Virus record (IMG/VR): IMGVR_UViG_3300014205_000002
Location: 64,001 to 128,000 of that record
Length of the DNA stretch: 64,000 nt
DNA from: a virus
Taxonomy: Duplodnaviria > Caudoviricetes
Direction: 5' to 3' (one strand)
Below, piece after piece: positions 19,848 through 46,149 of the stretch (the first letter of the stretch is position 1; each line of letters begins with the position of its first letter). The notes beneath the pieces were generated by a model. The model saw only the letters and a program-made list of their open reading frames with translations. It was not told where the DNA came from and did no database searches. Made by a program: the position numbers and the translations under genes.

Positions 19848-20354
19848 ATGCTCTTGAACTTCACCCCGCCCGATCGGGCGAGATTCGACTCCGACGAGAC
19901 CTGGGGCGACGCCTACTGGAAGGCGCGCAAGGCCTTCATTCATGCCGGCCACTCCGAGCGTCATGACGACTACTGTGCCGCGAGCGACGGCGAGAAGCGC
20001 TACGCCTTTCAGATTCAGCAGATGTACGAGGGCTCGGGCGACTATCTCAGCGGGAACAGCTCCCACGAGCTGCCCTGGTTCGACGACGTCGACAAGGCGA
20101 TCGCCTACCTAGAGCAGGCCCCGTTCCCCGGCTCGGTGCAGCGCACGGCCGCCGGCCTCAAGGGCGAGCCGACCTGGCTCACCGCTGGCGTGGCCTACAC
20201 GAAGTGGGCCGGCGAGCAGGATTACTGGAAGGCCCGCAACCTGACGCCGGGCTTGCATCACTGGCATCCGGAGCTTGGTCAGACCGGGCCGGGCACCGTG
20301 CCCTGTACGCTCTGTGACGTCGCCCGCGCGGACGCACCGCACACTGAAAGGTGA
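19848..20354 (+). CDS. Hypothetical protein (start MLLNFT)
   Basis: GAGGAG RBS. Confidence 0.6.
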   Translation: MLLNFTPPDRARFDSDETWGDAYWKARKAFIHAGHSERHDDYCAASDGEKRYAFQIQQMYEGSGDYLSGNSSHELPWFDDVDKAIAYLEQAPFPGSVQRTAAGLKGEPTWLTAGVAYTKWAGEQDYWKARNLTPGLHHWHPELGQTGPGTVPCTLCDVARADAPHTER

Positions 20355-21385
20355 CACATATGATTGATTATGAGCACATGGACTTCGACTGTGACGTCCC
20401 TGACGAACTCATGTGCGACCTAAAACAGATTCTCGACGCCCGGAACCGGATCAAGGTATGCGTCGCCGGCAAACTCTACGAGTACCGTCCGGTCGTTGTT
20501 TTTAGTGAAAACTCCGGCACGGTGATTGTCGTCATCAAGTATGCCGACAACGAGGCGCATCTTTCTGATGTGGCGGAGTTCGAGTACGGCGAGTACAAAG
20601 ACCTCTCCGAGGACAAGCGGATCGATCTGGTTCGTTTTAAGTTTCTGGAGATGAAGGATACCTTTGATTGCGTCTCATTCAATATCCCCCGAGAGTTGGG
20701 ACTATTGGAGACGTTTAAGGGGTTGGCCGAGCCTGCGGCCGTCAGCACGGCGACGTGCTCACCTTGGCGCGTCGAGGGCGTCGTTCCAGACGAAGGCATG
20801 GTCAACAAGTTGCTCGTCATCATCCAGAATGAGATTCTTGAGCATTACTCTGACATGCTCGCGTTCGATGTGGACGACGCTGACGACCTCGGTGGTAGCA
20901 TCGTTGATCGGGTGTTTGCGGAGATCGCGCCCGACAAGATCGCCAAGATGCCCAGCGACGATGATGACGCTTCCGAATCCGTCGTTATTACCGACGAAGT
21001 CAAGGAGGCGTTTCGAGACGCCCTCTGGGGCTATTTTAAGATCGCCTCGCCATTGGCGATACGAACCAAGGAAGGCCGCGAGGCCGCAATCGACATGATC
21101 GAGGCTGCTGTTGAGAGCCCCAATCTAGAGGGTAGCTACCTCAAGGATAGCCTTGTTTCTATGACGAATTGGCATAACTTCATGACCGTCACGGAGCTTG
21201 AGCGCAACATTGGTTATGCGATCCTCAATCAGGCTGGCCACGTCCCTATAACCAATGGTTACGGTTACTTGATCTGCACCAATGAGCATCGTCAACTCAC
21301 CGAGATGGAGATCGACTCCATGTCAGATAAGGCCCTGGAGATGATCGTCACCTTCCTTGAGTCCGGCGAGACGGACGACGACTAG
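20351..21385 (+). CDS. Acidic hypothetical protein, AT-richer than its flanks
   Basis: 344 aa; GTGA overlap with the upstream gene. Confidence 0.7.
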   Translation: MTHMIDYEHMDFDCDVPDELMCDLKQILDARNRIKVCVAGKLYEYRPVVVFSENSGTVIVVIKYADNEAHLSDVAEFEYGEYKDLSEDKRIDLVRFKFLEMKDTFDCVSFNIPRELGLLETFKGLAEPAAVSTATCSPWRVEGVVPDEGMVNKLLVIIQNEILEHYSDMLAFDVDDADDLGGSIVDRVFAEIAPDKIAKMPSDDDDASESVVITDEVKEAFRDALWGYFKIASPLAIRTKEGREAAIDMIEAAVESPNLEGSYLKDSLVSMTNWHNFMTVTELERNIGYAILNQAGHVPITNGYGYLICTNEHRQLTEMEIDSMSDKALEMIVTFLESGETDDD

Positions 21386-21387
21386 GC

Positions 21388-21413
21388 TTCCTGATAATCG
21401 CGGTTATCAGGAA
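21388..21413. repeat. Perfect 10-6-10 inverted repeat, dif-like core
   Basis: TTCCTGATAA TCGCGG TTATCAGGAA. Confidence 0.85.
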
Positions 21414-21515: not shown

Positions 21516-21601
21516 AGGCTTGGCACAGGCACTCGTGGGCGCTGCTCCGTAAGCACGCGCCCAGAGCCAGTTTCCGGAAATAGCCCGCATCCGGAATAGG
21601 T

Positions 21602-21621
21602 CAGATAAGACTCATTATCTG
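21602..21621. repeat. 7-6-7 inverted repeat, dif-like core
   Basis: CAGATAA GACTCA TTATCTG. Confidence 0.8.
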
Positions 21622-21689
21622 TACTGGCGCGGGTTTCGGTGCTTTTGTCACGCGTCGCGGCCGAGTTGGTCGCGGCAGAGAGGAACCCT

Positions 21690-22491: not shown

Positions 22492-22830
22492 ATGATCATC
22501 ACCAACCGGAAGAACGCCCCGCTCGCCGCCCAGTGGATCAAAGATAAGCGCACCGAGGCAGGTCTCACGCTGCGGGACATTGAGAAGAAGGTCGATGGCA
22601 TCACCTACTCGCACATGTCGCGCATCGAGAATGGTACCCGGCGCATTCCGCTCGATCGCGTCGACGATCTCTGTGACGTCATGGGCGCGCCCCGTCATGA
22701 GCTGCGCGCGCTCGTGCTTACAGAAGACATGAGCGCAGACGATCAGCTCAAGGTGGCCGAAGCTATCCTCAGGCGGCTCGGGCTCACCCTCGCGATCTCG
22801 GCGACGGCGACGCCGGAGCTGGCGGCGTGA
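22492..22830 (+). CDS. XRE/Cro-family helix-turn-helix regulator
   Basis: IKDKRTEAGLTLRDIEKKVDGITYSHMSRIENGTRRIP. Confidence 0.9.
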   Translation: MIITNRKNAPLAAQWIKDKRTEAGLTLRDIEKKVDGITYSHMSRIENGTRRIPLDRVDDLCDVMGAPRHELRALVLTEDMSADDQLKVAEAILRRLGLTLAISATATPELAA

Positions 22831-25560: not shown

Positions 25561-25763
25561 CCGTGAAGTGGATCGCCAAAAACGCGGGGCCTGTCGTCCG
25601 ATGCGGCGACACTCATGATGTGACGCTGATTCAGGCTAAATGCTTCTGCCACAACATGGCCGGCTGTGTCGAGCACGGCATGCTGTTTATACAGGAGAGT
25701 GGCGAGAAGTCCTGGTACGAGGGTGGTGTCGGTCCCTCGCTCAAGCCCGATGATTCTCAATAA
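25557..25763 (+). CDS. Hypothetical protein; stop lies in site 1
   Basis: ATGA overlap; TAA inside TCAATAAGG. Confidence 0.55.
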   Translation: MTVKWIAKNAGPVVRCGDTHDVTLIQAKCFCHNMAGCVEHGMLFIQESGEKSWYEGGVGPSLKPDDSQ

Positions 25764-25790
25764 GGTTTTGCTTACATTGAAAGGAGCACC

Positions 25791-25937
25791 ATGACGGTCG
25801 AGCAGCTTATCAAGCTCCTGCAAGAGGCCAAACAGACGGCCGAGGTCCGCATCGGTGGTAAGAGCCGCAAGGCGATCGGAAAGAGGATTGGAGGCGTCTG
25901 GCATGGGTCCTGCTACATCGAGATCCTGCCCGAGTAG
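25791..25937 (+). CDS. Cassette ORF, 48 aa (MTVEQLIKLLQE; not in the ORF track)
   Basis: GAAAGGAG RBS from site 1; TAG abuts site 2. Confidence 0.65.
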   Translation: MTVEQLIKLLQEAKQTAEVRIGGKSRKAIGKRIGGVWHGSCYIEILPE

Positions 25938-25973
25938 CGATAGGCGTTTACTTCCATTGAAAGGAGGTCCACG

Positions 25974-26339
25974 GTGACCAATTACCTAGTCCGCAATACC
26001 GAGACCGGCGCGTTCTATCCTGTGGTTAACGTCCAACTCGAAATGGACGCCTACACCGCGGTCGTCGAAGCGTTCGACATCCCGCAGTCGGTCGCAGACG
26101 CCCCTCTCGAAATTATGAACCAGGCGTGGGTTTGCCCCGGCGAGTACGCCACCAAGAGCATCCGTAGCGCCAAAGAGGAACTCTGGCAGGCGATGGGGCC
26201 TGACGCCACCGAGGCCGAGCGTGACGCCGTATGGGAGGCTGATGTCGTCCACGATCCGGACGCGGACGCCTACTACGTGGTCGACCTCGTCAAGGCGATC
26301 GAGCGAGTGACGGACAACAAATCGGAGAATCGGAAGTAG
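25974..26339 (+). CDS. Cassette ORF, acidic hypothetical
   Basis: GAAAGGAGG RBS; TAG directly before site 3. Confidence 0.7.
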   Translation: MTNYLVRNTETGAFYPVVNVQLEMDAYTAVVEAFDIPQSVADAPLEIMNQAWVCPGEYATKSIRSAKEELWQAMGPDATEAERDAVWEADVVHDPDADAYYVVDLVKAIERVTDNKSENRK

Positions 26340-26374
26340 TCAATACTCGTTTACTTACATTGAAAGGAGCCACG

Positions 26375-26581
26375 ATGGCACGCCCACCAGGACCTCGCAA
26401 GCCCCGCCGTGACTTCGACGCCGAGCCGCAATACTGCGGCAGCGGCATCACGCCTGAACAGGCGAAGGCGATTCTGTCGCTCTGCAAGGCGCTGGAATAC
26501 TGCGCGGCCCTGGGTCACGACGACGTGGCGCTCAACGCCCTGGAAGCCGACGCCGCCAAGCACGGGCCACCTACAAAGTAG
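26375..26581 (+). CDS. Cassette ORF, 68 aa
   Basis: GAAAGGAG RBS; TAG ends the left arm of site 4. Confidence 0.65.
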   Translation: MARPPGPRKPRRDFDAEPQYCGSGITPEQAKAILSLCKALEYCAALGHDDVALNALEADAAKHGPPTK

Positions 26582-26612
26582 TCCTTCTTATCGAGAGCAT
26601 ATGAGGCCACGA

Positions 26613-26810
26613 ATGGAACAACTACACCAGGCTAAATTCCGCGTTGTCTGCACATTGCCGTATGACAACGAAAGGCATGTAGCGTGCCTGACTCCTATTA
26701 ATGGACCCGGCGTAGATCTTCAACTCTACGTTGACACGCCAACATGCGTGCGGTTAAAGCAGGCGTACGACAGCGGTGAGATTGTAACGTTAACGCTAAG
26801 TTCCGGATAA
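26613..26810 (+). CDS. Cassette ORF, 65 aa, AT-rich
   Basis: GAGG RBS; flanked by two sites with spacer TCCTTC. Confidence 0.6.
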   Translation: MEQLHQAKFRVVCTLPYDNERHVACLTPINGPGVDLQLYVDTPTCVRLKQAYDSGEIVTLTLSSG

Positions 26811-26838
26811 TCCTTCGAATATTGAAAATGAGGTCCTT

Positions 26839-27012
26839 ATGGACGCCTACCACATAGACGGAGAACCATTGCTGCTTGCCACGGTGCAACACGGTGATGG
26901 GCGCACAGAGGAAGTGTGTCTAATGTCCGATGGCACACAGGCCACTAACCCCGTTCGCAGGCTCGGAGGCGGCAACCGGGCACAGCGCAGGGCCGCCAAG
27001 AAGTCAAAGTAA
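26839..27012 (+). CDS. Cassette ORF, 57 aa (MDAYHIDG; not in the ORF track)
   Basis: GAGG RBS; ends TCA AAG TAA, the left arm of site 6. Confidence 0.6.
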   Translation: MDAYHIDGEPLLLATVQHGDGRTEEVCLMSDGTQATNPVRRLGGGNRAQRRAAKKSK

Positions 27013-27037
27013 TCACTATTTCATTGAAAGGAGCGTC

Positions 27038-27605: not shown

Positions 27606-27645
27606 GCTCAATGTAACCAATATTACATAACGAAAGGAGGGCCCT

Positions 27646-28143
27646 GTGACCTGGTTGAAGTTCGGTACCGTGAAGGGCGGCAAGACACACCGCCACATTG
27701 GTGGCGGCAATGCGCTCTGTGACCCCACTATTCAGTTTGAGGTGACGGGCAACCTCGGCGAGGTCTCGTGCAAGCATTGCCTGCGCAAGATGGCTGACGA
27801 GTCCTTGGCGGTGCCGGCCGTCCGCACGTTCTTCACTTATCAACAGGGCCTCGACTACGCAGTCCATACGGTGACGTTCCCGGCGGAATGGGTGCGGCCT
27901 GCCCGCGGCACCTGGTTCAAGAGCCTTGAAGGGCGTATGGTCGCCTGGCACAACTTCTACGACACGCCGGAGGAGGCGCACGCGGCAGCGGACCTGGCGA
28001 AGTTGCGCAGCCACCTGGCAGCCTTTCACAGCCGTACGAGGGACGACGCCTACGGCAGGGAGATGGTCCAGGAGATGACGGAGCTGGTCGAGAAGATCAT
28101 CGCCATCGCCTACCCGAAGCCAGCCGCCGCACCCGCAATATAA
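27646..28143 (+). CDS. Cassette ORF with N-terminal zinc finger
   Basis: H..ALC..VSCKHC; ends GCA ATA TAA, the left arm of site 8. Confidence 0.7.
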   Translation: MTWLKFGTVKGGKTHRHIGGGNALCDPTIQFEVTGNLGEVSCKHCLRKMADESLAVPAVRTFFTYQQGLDYAVHTVTFPAEWVRPARGTWFKSLEGRMVAWHNFYDTPEEAHAAADLAKLRSHLAAFHSRTRDDAYGREMVQEMTELVEKIIAIAYPKPAAAPAI

Positions 28144-28173
28144 CAACCATTTCATTGAAGAAAGGAGGGCTAC

Positions 28174-28353: not shown

Positions 28354-28388
28354 TCAAAGTAACACCAACATCATTGAGAGGCCCCAAC

Positions 28389-28712
28389 ATGGACCCTAGC
28401 GCACAGATCCAGGTTGACAAACTGCGACCTAAAATGATCGAAGCATTTTGCGTCAATTTCAATAAAAGTGAAGAAGAAGTAACTACGGCTATGAAAAGCG
28501 TGGGACATAAGTTCTTCATTGTAATATCAACTCGCCAACATGAATCATACGGATTGATGGCAACATTTATGGTTCCAGCCATCCGCAATAACCAACCAGA
28601 CTTTTCGGTCGAGGAGGCGCTAGTTGACGACGACTATATAGATTACTCGATTCGAGTTATTATCCAGTCAATCGAATCCGTCAACAATACGACCATCAGG
28701 CTTTCGCTATAA
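28389..28712 (+). CDS. Cassette ORF, 107 aa, markedly AT-rich
   Basis: GAGAGG RBS; ends TCG CTA TAA, the left arm of degenerate site 10. Confidence 0.65.
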   Translation: MDPSAQIQVDKLRPKMIEAFCVNFNKSEEEVTTAMKSVGHKFFIVISTRQHESYGLMATFMVPAIRNNQPDFSVEEALVDDDYIDYSIRVIIQSIESVNNTTIRLSL

Positions 28713-28796
28713 CTCCAAAACCCTTAAAAATAGCACGTAATATACTGACCAGATACCTAGACAACGACGGCGGCACGACCGCCAGGAGGATACCCA

Positions 28797-29165
28797 TTGA
28801 AGCAAGAACGCAAAGAGGCGCTGAGGAAGCTCGGCAAGGCCGCAGAGCGGTTCCGGCTGCTCGCGGCGGTGCCGATGCAACGCACCATCCGCCCCGGCGG
28901 CATCATCGTCCAGGCCGCCGAGGACGTGAACCTGTTTCTGCTGGCCGAGGGCATCGGCCTGGCGGGCGGCGACGGCCTGTTGCTGCTCACCGAGTTGGCG
29001 GCCACGCGGAAGGCGCTGGCGGATCTACTGGAGCACCACGAGGACGAGCCCGATCGGCCAGCCGTCAAGAACGCCAGCGCGATGCTGGAAGGAATCCACG
29101 AACACGTGGCGCTGATGCGGGACTTCGGCCCTGCCTCCGCTAAACAGAGCGAAGGCGGGCTGTGA
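28797..29165 (+). CDS. Hypothetical protein
   Basis: AGGAGG RBS, TTG start. Confidence 0.6.
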   Translation: MKQERKEALRKLGKAAERFRLLAAVPMQRTIRPGGIIVQAAEDVNLFLLAEGIGLAGGDGLLLLTELAATRKALADLLEHHEDEPDRPAVKNASAMLEGIHEHVALMRDFGPASAKQSEGGL

Positions 29166-29404
29166 TGCGGCGAGAGATTCCCATTACCCAGGGACCCAAC
29201 CGCACCGTGGCGATGACCCAACACGGCGACACGTTGAGTCTCTATGAGCGTGCGGACGGCCGGGAAAACCGGGTGTTTATTGCGCCCGAGGAGTTGGCAC
29301 TGGTTGCGCTCTCCGCGTCGGGACGCTTCCAGGAACGCTACTCCGCGGAGATTGAGCGGTTGCAGGGCCAGGCCGACTCACCGGGCGAAGGCGGCGGCGC
29401 ATGA
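29162..29404 (+). CDS. Hypothetical protein
   Basis: Overlaps both neighbours by 4 bp. Confidence 0.55.
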   Translation: MMRREIPITQGPNRTVAMTQHGDTLSLYERADGRENRVFIAPEELALVALSASGRFQERYSAEIERLQGQADSPGEGGGA

Positions 29405-29607
29405 CGAGCGTTTATCCCATCGGGCCGCTCGGCGAACCCGAAGATAGTCGGGCGTGGTCGAACGGCATTCCGCCGTGCGGTCCCTGTGGACGCGGGGAGC
29501 ACGATGAGTGCAAGGGTGGATTCGAGGACCTGGCCGGATACCGTCAGTGCTGGTGCCCTGTTTGCTACCCCGCCTCTTCGCGCAAAGACGGCGATCAGCA
29601 CGGATAG
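29401..29607 (+). CDS. Small Cys-rich protein
   Basis: CGPC..H..C..CWCPVC; TAG directly before site 11. Confidence 0.55.
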   Translation: MTSVYPIGPLGEPEDSRAWSNGIPPCGPCGRGEHDECKGGFEDLAGYRQCWCPVCYPASSRKDGDQHG

Positions 29608-29645
29608 TCAATGTAACAGCCGATTCATTGCAAAAAGGAGTCCTG

Positions 29646-29993
29646 ATGACTTGCTGCCATTGTTCAAGCGCCAACTTGGAATACGCCACGAAGCGCGCCC
29701 GCGAGGCTGAAGTTGAACTGGCTCGACTCCAGGCAGACGTCGCACGCATCCGCGGCGAGAACCAGAACCTCCACTACGCCATGCTCGTCGTCCGAGATCT
29801 GGTTGGCTTACAGACGCGGGATGCCTACCTTGACCCGGCCTTTGGGCAGATGGTGAAGCTCCCGGCTGACTGGCGAAAGTGGACGACCGAGCAGTATCAG
29901 GAATGGATCGATGGGCAGCAGCCAGAACTGCGCCGGGCCGTCGAGTTCCTGGACAAGATGGAGGGCGTCGTTGGCGTCGTCCCAGCAATATAA
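29646..29993 (+). CDS. Cassette ORF, 115 aa, coiled-coil
   Basis: AAAGGAG RBS; ends GCA ATA TAA, the left arm of site 12. Confidence 0.65.
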   Translation: MTCCHCSSANLEYATKRAREAEVELARLQADVARIRGENQNLHYAMLVVRDLVGLQTRDAYLDPAFGQMVKLPADWRKWTTEQYQEWIDGQQPELRRAVEFLDKMEGVVGVVPAI

Positions 29994-30020
29994 CCCCTGA
30001 CTCATTGAAAGGATGGCATT

Positions 30021-44573: not shown

Positions 44574-45343
44574 CCGTACGCAGCTACAACAAGCAGGCAA
44601 TGATCGCCGAACTCCGCGCCCACGCGCTGACCTCAGTGACGCCCGCCCGCCTCGGCCATGAGGGCGCTCGAACGCCGGGTGCGAAGGGCGTCTTGCTGAT
44701 GCTCAACCACCTGGAGAAGAACACGGACTTCTTCGACGCGCCCGCCAGCTCCCGCCGGCACTACCACAAGTCCGAGGTCGGCGGGCTCGCCCAGCACTCG
44801 TGGAACGTGATCAAGCTGATGCAGCGCTTCATCGTCGCCACCTTCAACGACACGGCGCAGGCCGAGCTGTACTGGTCGGCCACGCCGACGGCGGCAGCTC
44901 TCGACACCAAGGCGCTCTTGGAAAGTTGTTTCGTAATTGGCTTGTGCCATGACCTCAATAAGACCACGGTCTGGGGTCATCGGCAGTACGTCGACAACAT
45001 GCTCGTCAAGGGCCGCTCTGAGGCCGAGCCGTGGAAGAAGAACGCCCAGCGCGTGAAGCTCGGCTCGACCGACCAGGTGCTGCTCGCGTCGGAGTTCATC
45101 GACCTCAAGGCCGACGAGGTGCAGGGCATCCGCTACATCGAGGGCATGTACGATCGCAGCTTCATGGCCGACCTCGGTGCCAATTTCGAGTTCCTCACGC
45201 TGGCCGCTCACCACGCGGACATCATGGCCTCGCACGTCGTCGAGTCCAACGTGCCGTGGGATCGCGATCACCGCACCTGGGGCGCTCAGTTCGGGGCCTA
45301 CGCCAGTGTGCCCCAGACGGCCGAGGAGGCTGCCATCCTCTGA
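44570..45343 (+). CDS. HD-domain protein, phage YhaM-related family
   Basis: FFDAPAS..H..GGLAQHSWNV..LCHDLNK..HHADIMAS. Confidence 0.8.
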   Translation: MTVRSYNKQAMIAELRAHALTSVTPARLGHEGARTPGAKGVLLMLNHLEKNTDFFDAPASSRRHYHKSEVGGLAQHSWNVIKLMQRFIVATFNDTAQAELYWSATPTAAALDTKALLESCFVIGLCHDLNKTTVWGHRQYVDNMLVKGRSEAEPWKKNAQRVKLGSTDQVLLASEFIDLKADEVQGIRYIEGMYDRSFMADLGANFEFLTLAAHHADIMASHVVESNVPWDRDHRTWGAQFGAYASVPQTAEEAAIL

Positions 45344-45354
45344 AAGGAGGACCC

Positions 45355-46149
45355 GTGTCCACATTGAACGAATCGAAGGCCGCGCTGGTGAAGCGCGGCC
45401 TTCCTGCTGAGGCCGTCGCGATCCTGGCGGCCCAGCTCCCAGCGGGCGATCTCTCGTACAAACCGAAGAAGGTCATCAAGTCCACGACGGGCCAGGGCTT
45501 CGTGGCGCTCGCGATCGCCTACGTCGATCGCGACGCGGTCTGCAAGCGCCTGCACGAGAGCGGTCTCGCCTGGAGCTACAAGCCCACCCTGATCGAGCGC
45601 ACCAACGTCTACGCGTGCATCCTGGGTACAATCCTCGTGACGCTGGAAAGCGGCGTCGTGGTCGAGTTCTCCGACTACGGCGAGGCCGAGAACGGCCGCG
45701 GGTATGCGGATCGCGAACTCGTCAAGGAGGCGAACACCGATGCGATCAAGCGCGCCGGTCGTATGCTGCTGATCGGGGCGGAGATGTCCAAGGTCAAGAA
45801 GGTCTGGAAGCCCTGTCTCGTCGAGAACGAGCGGGATACCAAGCTGAAATTCCAGGCCTGGGTGGAGGAGGTCGATCCCGAGCCTCCGGCCATACCGCCG
45901 GTGACCAAGCCGATCACGCCGGCCGTGGTCGCCGTGATCAATACGAAGCCGCCACCTCCGCATGTGGAGCGCATCGAGAAGCTGATCGAGAAGCATGCGA
46001 TCAAGCGGTCGGAGCTGATCCTCTACATCCAGAACACGTTCAAGGTCAACGACTTCGCCCTGCTGACGGAGGCCAACGCCCAGGTCGTGGTCGACACCAT
46101 CGTGCGCAAGTACGAGAGCCCCAAGGAGGTCCCGATTGGACGCAGTTAG
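45355..46149 (+). CDS. Rad52/Rad22-like (Sak-type) single-strand annealing protein
   Basis: AYVDRDAVCKRL..W..KEANTDAIKRA..IG; GAAAGGAGG RBS. Confidence 0.8.
   Translation: MSTLNESKAALVKRGLPAEAVAILAAQLPAGDLSYKPKKVIKSTTGQGFVALAIAYVDRDAVCKRLHESGLAWSYKPTLIERTNVYACILGTILVTLESGVVVEFSDYGEAENGRGYADRELVKEANTDAIKRAGRMLLIGAEMSKVKKVWKPCLVENERDTKLKFQAWVEEVDPEPPAIPPVTKPITPAVVAVINTKPPPPHVERIEKLIEKHAIKRSELILYIQNTFKVNDFALLTEANAQVVVDTIVRKYESPKEVPIGRS

Follow-up and report, generated by a model that had tools for sequence, protein, structure and literature searches.

A row of twelve 24-bp motifs in a phage genome is read here, tentatively, as a set of duplex-DNA junction elements that would border independently acquired gene units and double as translation signals, the likeness between neighbouring motifs being a matter of descent. 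The graded middle of the motif is probably a record of the growth of the gene row and not an address for insertion.

The mechanics of orphan-gene gain in phage hotspots are known for few systems, such as the PeSLs of T4-like phages. The array described below is an unusually legible case, with a compact palindromic element, a putative junction, that doubles as a translation signal, with two genes flanked by identical centres, and with a gradient that may keep the order of additions. If genes are indeed exchanged at these sites, the array would be a new model for the capture and expression of foreign genes by large phages, and might provide a compact recombination site that brings its own expression signals. 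Should the element prove to be no more than a regulator site, it would join the poorly understood start-associated repeats of phages.

The array and its repeated element

The window, that is, the whole stretch of DNA under analysis, comprises 64,000 nucleotides (bases 64001-128000) of a 208,264-bp IMG/VR virus record, from an uncultured phage, that has direct terminal repeats and 64% GC and is rated complete; G000 denotes coordinates in the genome. The analysis rests on this one genome and on twelve sites, a number that leaves several of the tests with little power. Very few of the phage's proteins have Pfam or PHROGs matches, and a baseplate wedge match suggests a contractile-tailed phage.

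Small genes on the + strand occur in the window from ~19.3 kb on. Between 25.7 and 30.0 kb they form an array of 11 units, each made of one to three small genes (48-165 aa), and a repeated element sits in the 26-40-nt gap ahead of each unit. Within multi-gene units the inner genes overlap stop-to-start and carry no element. As in an integron-like row, the array genes all lie on the + strand, are mutually unrelated and show no promoter excess. None of them belongs to a Pfam family. The cassette proteins show no paralogy among themselves and have no second copies elsewhere in the genome, and gene duplication was rejected as the source of the repeats on these grounds. The sites and the genes discussed in the text are the following:

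25757-25780, + strand: site 1, 24 bp, centre TTTTGC, PWM score 25.4; followed by the RBS and start of the gene at 25791-25937
25937-25960, + strand: site 2, centre GTTTAC, PWM score 18.3, left arm weak, right arm 8/9; first member of a matched pair
25974-26339, + strand: 121-aa orphan gene between the matched sites 2 and 3
26340-26363, + strand: site 3, centre GTTTAC, PWM score 25.5; second member of the matched pair
26573-26596, + strand: site 4, centre TCCTTC, left arm consensus-like, right arm non-consensus
26613-26810, + strand: 65-aa gene, 50% GC; the low-GC stretch spans site 4 to site 5
26802-26825, + strand: site 5, centre TCCTTC, left arm non-consensus, right arm consensus-like
27004-27027, + strand: site 6, centre TCACTA, 16 of 18 arm positions equal to the consensus, PWM score 31.0
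27608-27631, + strand: site 7, centre CCAATA, found by consensus and PWM scan
28135-28158, + strand: site 8, centre CAACCA; its left arm is the last codons and stop of the gene at 27646-28143
28354-28377, + strand: site 9, centre CACCAA, found by consensus and PWM scan
28389-28712, + strand: 107-aa gene between sites 9 and 10, 42% GC, the most AT-rich gene of the array
28704-28727, + strand: site 10, centre CTCCAA; doubtful, with right arm 3/9 and PWM score below threshold, and followed by an 84-nt AT-rich gap
29608-29631, + strand: site 11, centre CAGCCG, found by consensus and PWM scan
29985-30008, + strand: site 12, centre CCCCTG; its left arm is the last codons and stop of the gene at 29646-29993

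The geometry of the element is fixed at 9-6-9 (24 bp), and the consensus sequences of the two arms are reverse complements of each other. Conservation is highest in the outer columns, which read C-A-A(-T) in the left arm and C-A-T-T-G-A in the right, a fixed distance apart. CATTGA is the most conserved part of the site, and conservation is lowest in columns 16-18, at the inner end of the right arm. The stop codon of the upstream gene, or an in-frame second stop, lies within the left arm. The right arm leads into GAAAGGAG, an RBS sequence that other genes of the phage use as well, which leaves TCAAT-N14-ATTGA as the part specific to the element. The copies all lie on the + strand, with CATTGA followed by the RBS and then by 4-7 nt to the start codon. 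Because the left arms of sites 8 and 12 encode the ends of the upstream genes, two unrelated proteins both end in Pro-Ala-Ile. These two sites have four further upstream bases in common.

An inverted repeat of this kind admits more than one explanation. One is an RNA or single-stranded DNA hairpin, acting in processing or attenuation or as an attC-like folded site: the arm consensus sequences are reverse-complementary, and the site at 27608 folds a 6-bp stem. It is, however, alone in doing so. The inverted repeat does not fold in 10 of the 11 elements, and the z-scores obtained by RNA folding of the 11 elements range from -0.5 to +1.8, mostly above 0, which is no better than shuffled sequence. 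Compensatory changes are not seen either, as the arms of the same site pair at 4.67 of 9 positions, worse than random combinations of left and right arms (5.15 of 9). The lack of covariation between the arms of one site argues for a duplex-DNA site bound by a symmetric protein, and a hairpin appears exceedingly unlikely.

Neither a sigma-70 promoter nor an intrinsic terminator accounts for the element, and both identities were rejected: 3 promoter-like sites were found in 13 kb against 3.7 expected, none of them in the elements, and intrinsic terminators were at chance level, with none within the elements. A search for a T7-type RNA polymerase gave no match, and is uninformative because the control search gave none either. 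The phage encodes a sigma-70-family protein at G000:62119-62319, just upstream of the window start (Sigma70_r2, 9e-9, within an open frame of 503 aa), and the genome is therefore likely to contain phage-specific promoters.

When the whole genome was scanned with the consensus and with a weight matrix, strong copies of the motif were found only within a 4.3-kb stretch, the remaining matches being at shuffle level. A genome-wide regulon was rejected because strong sites are confined to the array in both scans.

The graded middle of the motif

The first-pass annotation of this DNA had singled out a matched pair of sites, at 25937 and 26340, around one ORF. We find the pair as described: the 22-mer CGTTTACTT(C/A)CATTGAAAGGAG is present at 25945-25966 and 26348-26369 with one difference (21 of 22 bases equal). 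Aligned in the fixed 9-6-9 register, sites 2 and 3 are equal at 19 of their 24 positions; both also carry CCACG just ahead of the start codon. The probability that a given adjacent pair matches over 7 bases is ~6e-5, which indicates that the identical centres flanking one gene are not due to chance. The twelve 6-mers are exactly as they had been listed, and CACCAA and CTCCAA, at 28363 and 28713, do lie on either side of the most AT-rich ORF (28389-28712, 42% GC). Identical 6-mers flank only 2 of the 11 units; in the other 9 the flanking 6-mers are non-identical.

The same annotation held that adjacent spacers are alike and that they form a gradient along the array, and both statements are borne out. 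When the identity of adjacent 6-mers was summed and compared with 200,000 shuffled orders, 42 identities were found against 20.0 ± 5.0 in the shuffled orders (p ~1e-5). The likeness persisted when identical neighbours were collapsed (p = 3e-4), when only the nine robust sites were considered, leaving out those at 26573, 26802 and 28704 (p = 0.0015), and when both restrictions were applied together (p = 0.007). Checks that do not depend on the register point in the same direction: alignment scores of whole intergenic elements gave p = 0.004-0.016, a Mantel test gave r = -0.34 (p = 0.011), and a repeat search split the copies into two families, each contiguous in position. The gradient is one of base composition: centres further along the array contain fewer T (T count against rank, rho = -0.86, p = 3e-4) and more C (rho = +0.81, p = 0.0015), a trend that is absent from the cassette genes. 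The sub-families of centres are contiguous, and comprise sites 1-3, 4-5 and 6-12.

Tested column by column, the likeness between neighbours resides in columns 7-17 of the 24-bp element. By parts, the signal amounts to p = 0.001 in left-arm positions 7-9, p = 1e-5 in the six centre bases and p = 0.06 in right-arm positions 1-3, and it does not reach significance in the outer arms, in the tails between RBS and start codon, or in the coding flanks. Hence, the 6-bp 'spacer' is the core of a broader variable middle and not a sharply bounded unit. Adjacent sites resemble each other in the outer left arm no more than random pairs do, and possibly less (27 vs 29.8 ± 1.7). Sites 6, 7 and 8 have three left-arm 9-mers that return in identical succession at sites 9, 11 and 12, where the centres are unrelated, an arrangement whose chance is ~0.07 by simple counting; identical left arms recur three sites apart. 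Position in the array is reflected in the middle of a site but not in its left arm, so that the sites look mosaic.

At sites 4 and 5 the arms look chimeric, and each of the two non-consensus arms repeats the other in inverted form at 7 of 9 positions. These arms are of the ATAA-N6-TTAT kind, as found also at 21389 and 21600.

We consider that the pattern may be explained by stepwise growth of the gene row. In the proposed mechanism the 24-bp motifs would be double-stranded-DNA junction elements in a gene-gain hotspot, with outer half-sites, TCAAT and ATTGA, whose separation of ~14 bp would suit a dimeric protein. The left half often provides the stop codon of the upstream gene, the right half joins the ordinary RBS of the phage, and the motifs border units of one to three unrelated orphan genes. 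A new unit would be added beside an existing one by recombination inside the element, and the newcomer would come to lie between two copies of the resident centre, a state that the two matched pairs may illustrate. Later drift would turn identical centres into similar ones, and in this manner might produce both the contiguous sub-families and the T-to-C gradient, which would then reflect age. If centres are similar by descent, the likeness between neighbours is a trace of that descent and not an address.

If units had been added locally, one after another, with drift afterwards, one would expect contiguous sub-families and a monotonic gradient, and both are observed. One half of the interpretation offered in the first-pass annotation, that the array records insertion history, fits these data; the other half, that the spacer acts as an address, finds no support in the tests.

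Two observations do not sit easily with junction elements. Simple duplication of a whole element predicts likeness at every variable column, and the outer left arms show none, or even the reverse, with identical left arms recurring beside unrelated centres. In addition, the AT-rich island around the gene at 28389-28712 is not bounded by sites 9 and 10. This island (~28410-28760) covers most of the gene and runs ~50 nt past its stop. It is followed by the 84-nt gap, which has an RBS of its own and precedes a three-gene unit (28797-29607), and a promoter may lie within the AT-rich region 28410-28796.

A purely regulatory role is possible, if unlikely. In this case the element would be the operator of a repressor or activator (a stoperator-like roadblock) fused to a translation start and without any part in gene movement, and the likeness between neighbours would come from tandem duplication or from short-range gene conversion of a centre that the protein does not contact. 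Dyad symmetry, conserved outer half-sites and a free centre are typical of dimer operators, and the leaders are unstructured. The placement between stop and RBS also resembles that of the SAS/ESAS repeats (PMC3203893). A possible DNA-binding protein is encoded nearby:

22492-22830, + strand: XRE-family helix-turn-helix gene (HTH_31, 9e-10), 3 kb upstream of the array

The XRE-family protein is a candidate reader of the palindromes. The PWM scan found no site at the start of the XRE gene itself, however, and the sites lie within 4.3 kb and are not spread over a regulon. Gene conversion should homogenise the arms too, and the outer left arms of neighbours are not alike. Furthermore, a regulatory role alone leaves unexplained the identical 6-mers around single genes of foreign GC content and the chimeric sites 4 and 5.

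The identical 6-mers might also be duplications of the target site, produced when small transposon-like units with terminal inverted repeats inserted into elements already in place, the remaining gradient being a coincidence of sub-families. The unit between sites 4 and 5 lends itself to this idea, as it has foreign GC content and 9-bp terminal inverted repeats (7/9) just inside the two copies of TCCTTC. However, no transposase is found in or near the array units and no serine recombinase in the genome, the identity between sites 2 and 3 reaches 21/22 and thus extends well past six bases, and the array-wide gradient is left unexplained. We regard this explanation as very improbable.

Possible recombination and gene gain, and candidate proteins

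The address model of the first-pass annotation is a site-specific cassette system: a tyrosine recombinase would cut at the borders between arms and centre, and identical 6-bp centres, required for exchange, would direct the entry of circular cassettes, which would make the array a phage counterpart of integrons or Xer/pdif modules. Several features are in its favour. The 9-bp inverted arms always lie 6 bp apart, two single genes have the same 6-mer on either side, and the outer left arms are uncoupled from the centres, as if arms travelled and centres stayed. Arm pairs that border the same cassette are slightly more complementary than those of the same site (5.45 vs 4.67, a difference that is not significant). 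No other reading naturally predicts both the independence of arm and centre and the chimeric arms of sites 4 and 5. The genome also encodes a possible enzyme, outside the window:

G000:171395-172348 (L001:1459-2412), minus strand: Xer-like tyrosine recombinase, 317 aa, with SAM-like and catalytic domains

This protein contains the single PF00589 match of the genome (G000:171437-171874), ~80 kb from the array. Of its catalytic residues, the two Arg and the Tyr are retained, but His II is replaced by Gln and His III by Phe. It aligns over its full length with the XerD/XerC models (1e-16), with a score of ~60 bits (61) against cut-offs of ~330, and scores 15.5 bits against the integron-integrase model TIGR02249, whose cut-off is 265. 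The gene sits within a row of genes, with no obvious site adjoining it.

What speaks against the address model is, in part, this same enzyme: it is ~80 kb away, its scores of 61 and 15.5 bits are far below the cut-offs, and it has Gln and Phe in place of catalytic His. Other objections concern the sites. Non-identical centres flank 9 of the 11 units; the neighbour signal covers columns 7-17 and not a sharp 6-bp block; the inner positions of the right arm are the least conserved, the opposite of dif and pdif sites (PMC6449649); and the genome scans found no strong site outside the array, the vicinity of the recombinase gene included. Matched centres are expected from conservative site-specific recombination, from homology-driven insertion of a circle, or from target duplication. 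Any insertion that duplicates the target centre yields a matched pair, so a matched pair does not show that the centre chose the target. With matched centres in 2 of 11 units, a signal that goes beyond six bases, and a recombinase that is remote and atypical, the address idea is unsupported, and we consider the model as a whole doubtful.

For junction elements that exchange units by recombination, the enzyme candidates would be the distant Xer-like recombinase, a Rad52-like annealing protein, or host functions. The second of these is represented in the window:

45031-46149, + strand: 372-aa ORF, candidate Rad52/22-family single-strand annealing protein (PF04098, 3.6e-5)

Phage annealing proteins of the Rad52/22 type support exchange between short homologies, and the candidate protein is a possible driver of short-homology exchange in the array. 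No ParB was found in the genome.

Two cassette genes, 26613-26810 (50% GC) and 28389-28712 (42% GC), are compositionally foreign. For the 121-aa protein encoded between sites 2 and 3, a metagenome scan revealed one homologue, with 56% identity, on the 1948-bp contig Ga0181337_1003171 (L002:391-901), which is without the motif. The family of the 121-aa gene thus exists independently of the element. The homologue overlaps a small ribbon-helix-helix-like gene and has a GC-rich terminator-like hairpin with a T run after it; on that contig it is part of a two-gene module in another genome.

Relatives of the array were sought in several collections. None was found in a phage database by DNA and protein search, nor in IMG/VR when four of the proteins were used as queries, and scans of IMG/VR and GTDB with the motif pattern returned scattered single matches only, of low GC or at chance level. 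Among sequencing runs, the stretch is present in one only, a landfill metagenome that is probably its source, and the contigs of that run show no variants, joints or circles for it. The junction-element reading accordingly rests on a single genome, for which the searches gave neither a relative nor a read variant that would show the gain, loss or movement of a unit.

Comparison with known systems

The element lacks defining features of SAS and stoperators, PeSLs, dif sites and integrons. SAS/ESAS are closest by layout, PeSLs by proposed role and Xer/pdif sites by site geometry.

SAS and ESAS are found in Cluster K mycobacteriophages (Pope et al. 2011; PMC3203893). The SAS is a 13-bp start-associated repeat that contains the RBS and lies 3-8 bp before the start of a subset of non-structural genes, in one orientation. 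Imperfect inverted repeats with 17-bp arms and a spacer of 4-13 bp precede about half of the repeats, and the copies extend over the non-structural half of the genome and recur in related phages. The systems are alike in having an RBS-containing repeat a few bases before start codons, in one orientation, and in the association with imperfect inverted repeats whose spacer is variable, here 9-bp arms around a variable 6-bp centre. They differ in several respects: the sequences are unrelated, the arms are 9 bp here and 17 bp in Cluster K, the spacing is fixed at 6 bp as opposed to 4-13 bp, the RBS here directly adjoins the right arm while the stop codon of the preceding gene lies in the left arm, and the copies lie within 4.3 kb instead of being spread over half a genome. 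Positional grading of the centres is not known to have been described for ESAS.

PeSLs of T4-type phages have been proposed, and partly shown, to mediate gene shuffling and the formation of mini-circles (Arbiol et al. 2010, PMC2839356; Comeau et al. 2014, PMC4122927), the exchange having been demonstrated by comparison of sister phages. Like the element described here, the PeSL is an intergenic repeat that reaches from the upstream stop codon to the RBS or start of the next gene, upstream of ORFans and in a variable or hyperplastic region. What sets PeSLs apart is their strong sigma-70 promoter and their stable stem-loop terminator, both absent from the elements of the array; in addition, no sister phage was found here for comparison.

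The pdif/dif sites of Acinetobacter plasmids resemble the array in that small gene modules are bounded by inverted arms around a variable 6-bp centre; the phage genome also encodes the Xer-like recombinase candidate. dif sites have an 11-6-11 geometry (28 bp) and their inner arm parts are the most conserved (PMC6449649). The arms of the phage element are 9 bp long, and the inner right-arm bases are the least conserved. Orientation is a further difference: pdif modules are flanked by oppositely oriented sites, whereas all sites in the array face the same way relative to the genes, and the recombinase is remote and atypical.

Integrons (IntI, attI, attC) have in common with the array a series of promoterless, unrelated small genes that point in the same direction and lie between repeats resembling recombination sites. 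No IntI is encoded next to the array (TIGR02249, 15.5 vs 265 bits), there is no adjacent attI or promoter platform, and the sites are 24 bp long and do not fold, in contrast to attC sites, which are imperfect palindromes of 57-141 bp that fold as single strands. A more speculative reading would be a phage integron-like gene-capture array, in which a divergent Xer-like recombinase acts at the borders between arms and centre of 9-6-9 sites that carry stop and RBS context; arms would move with cassettes, and centres would keep their place and with it the order of insertion. We judge it improbable.

Stoperators, described in mycobacteriophage L5 and in Cluster A, are 13-bp asymmetric sites distributed genome-wide and bound by the immunity repressor. 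In both cases many copies of a short, here putative, protein-binding site lie in gaps between stop and start codons. The site described here differs in being a 24-bp palindrome and in its local distribution.

Other repeats were detected in the window upstream of the array. A 300-bp non-coding block contains a perfect 9-6-9 palindrome at 21389-21412, with arms ending in GATAA and starting with TTATC, and a second palindrome, of 7-6-7 geometry, at 21600-21623. With the exception of the one at 21389, other 9-6-9 palindromes in the genome occur at shuffle level. A 344-aa protein encoded beside the 21.4-kb palindromes belongs to no family, and its Atlas model is poor. Finally, G000:44912-44935 and window positions 21141-21164, which are far apart, have GCCTTGTTTCT(C/A)TGA in common (15 of 16 bases); the window copy is a terminator-like hairpin within the end of the ORF at 20351-21385.
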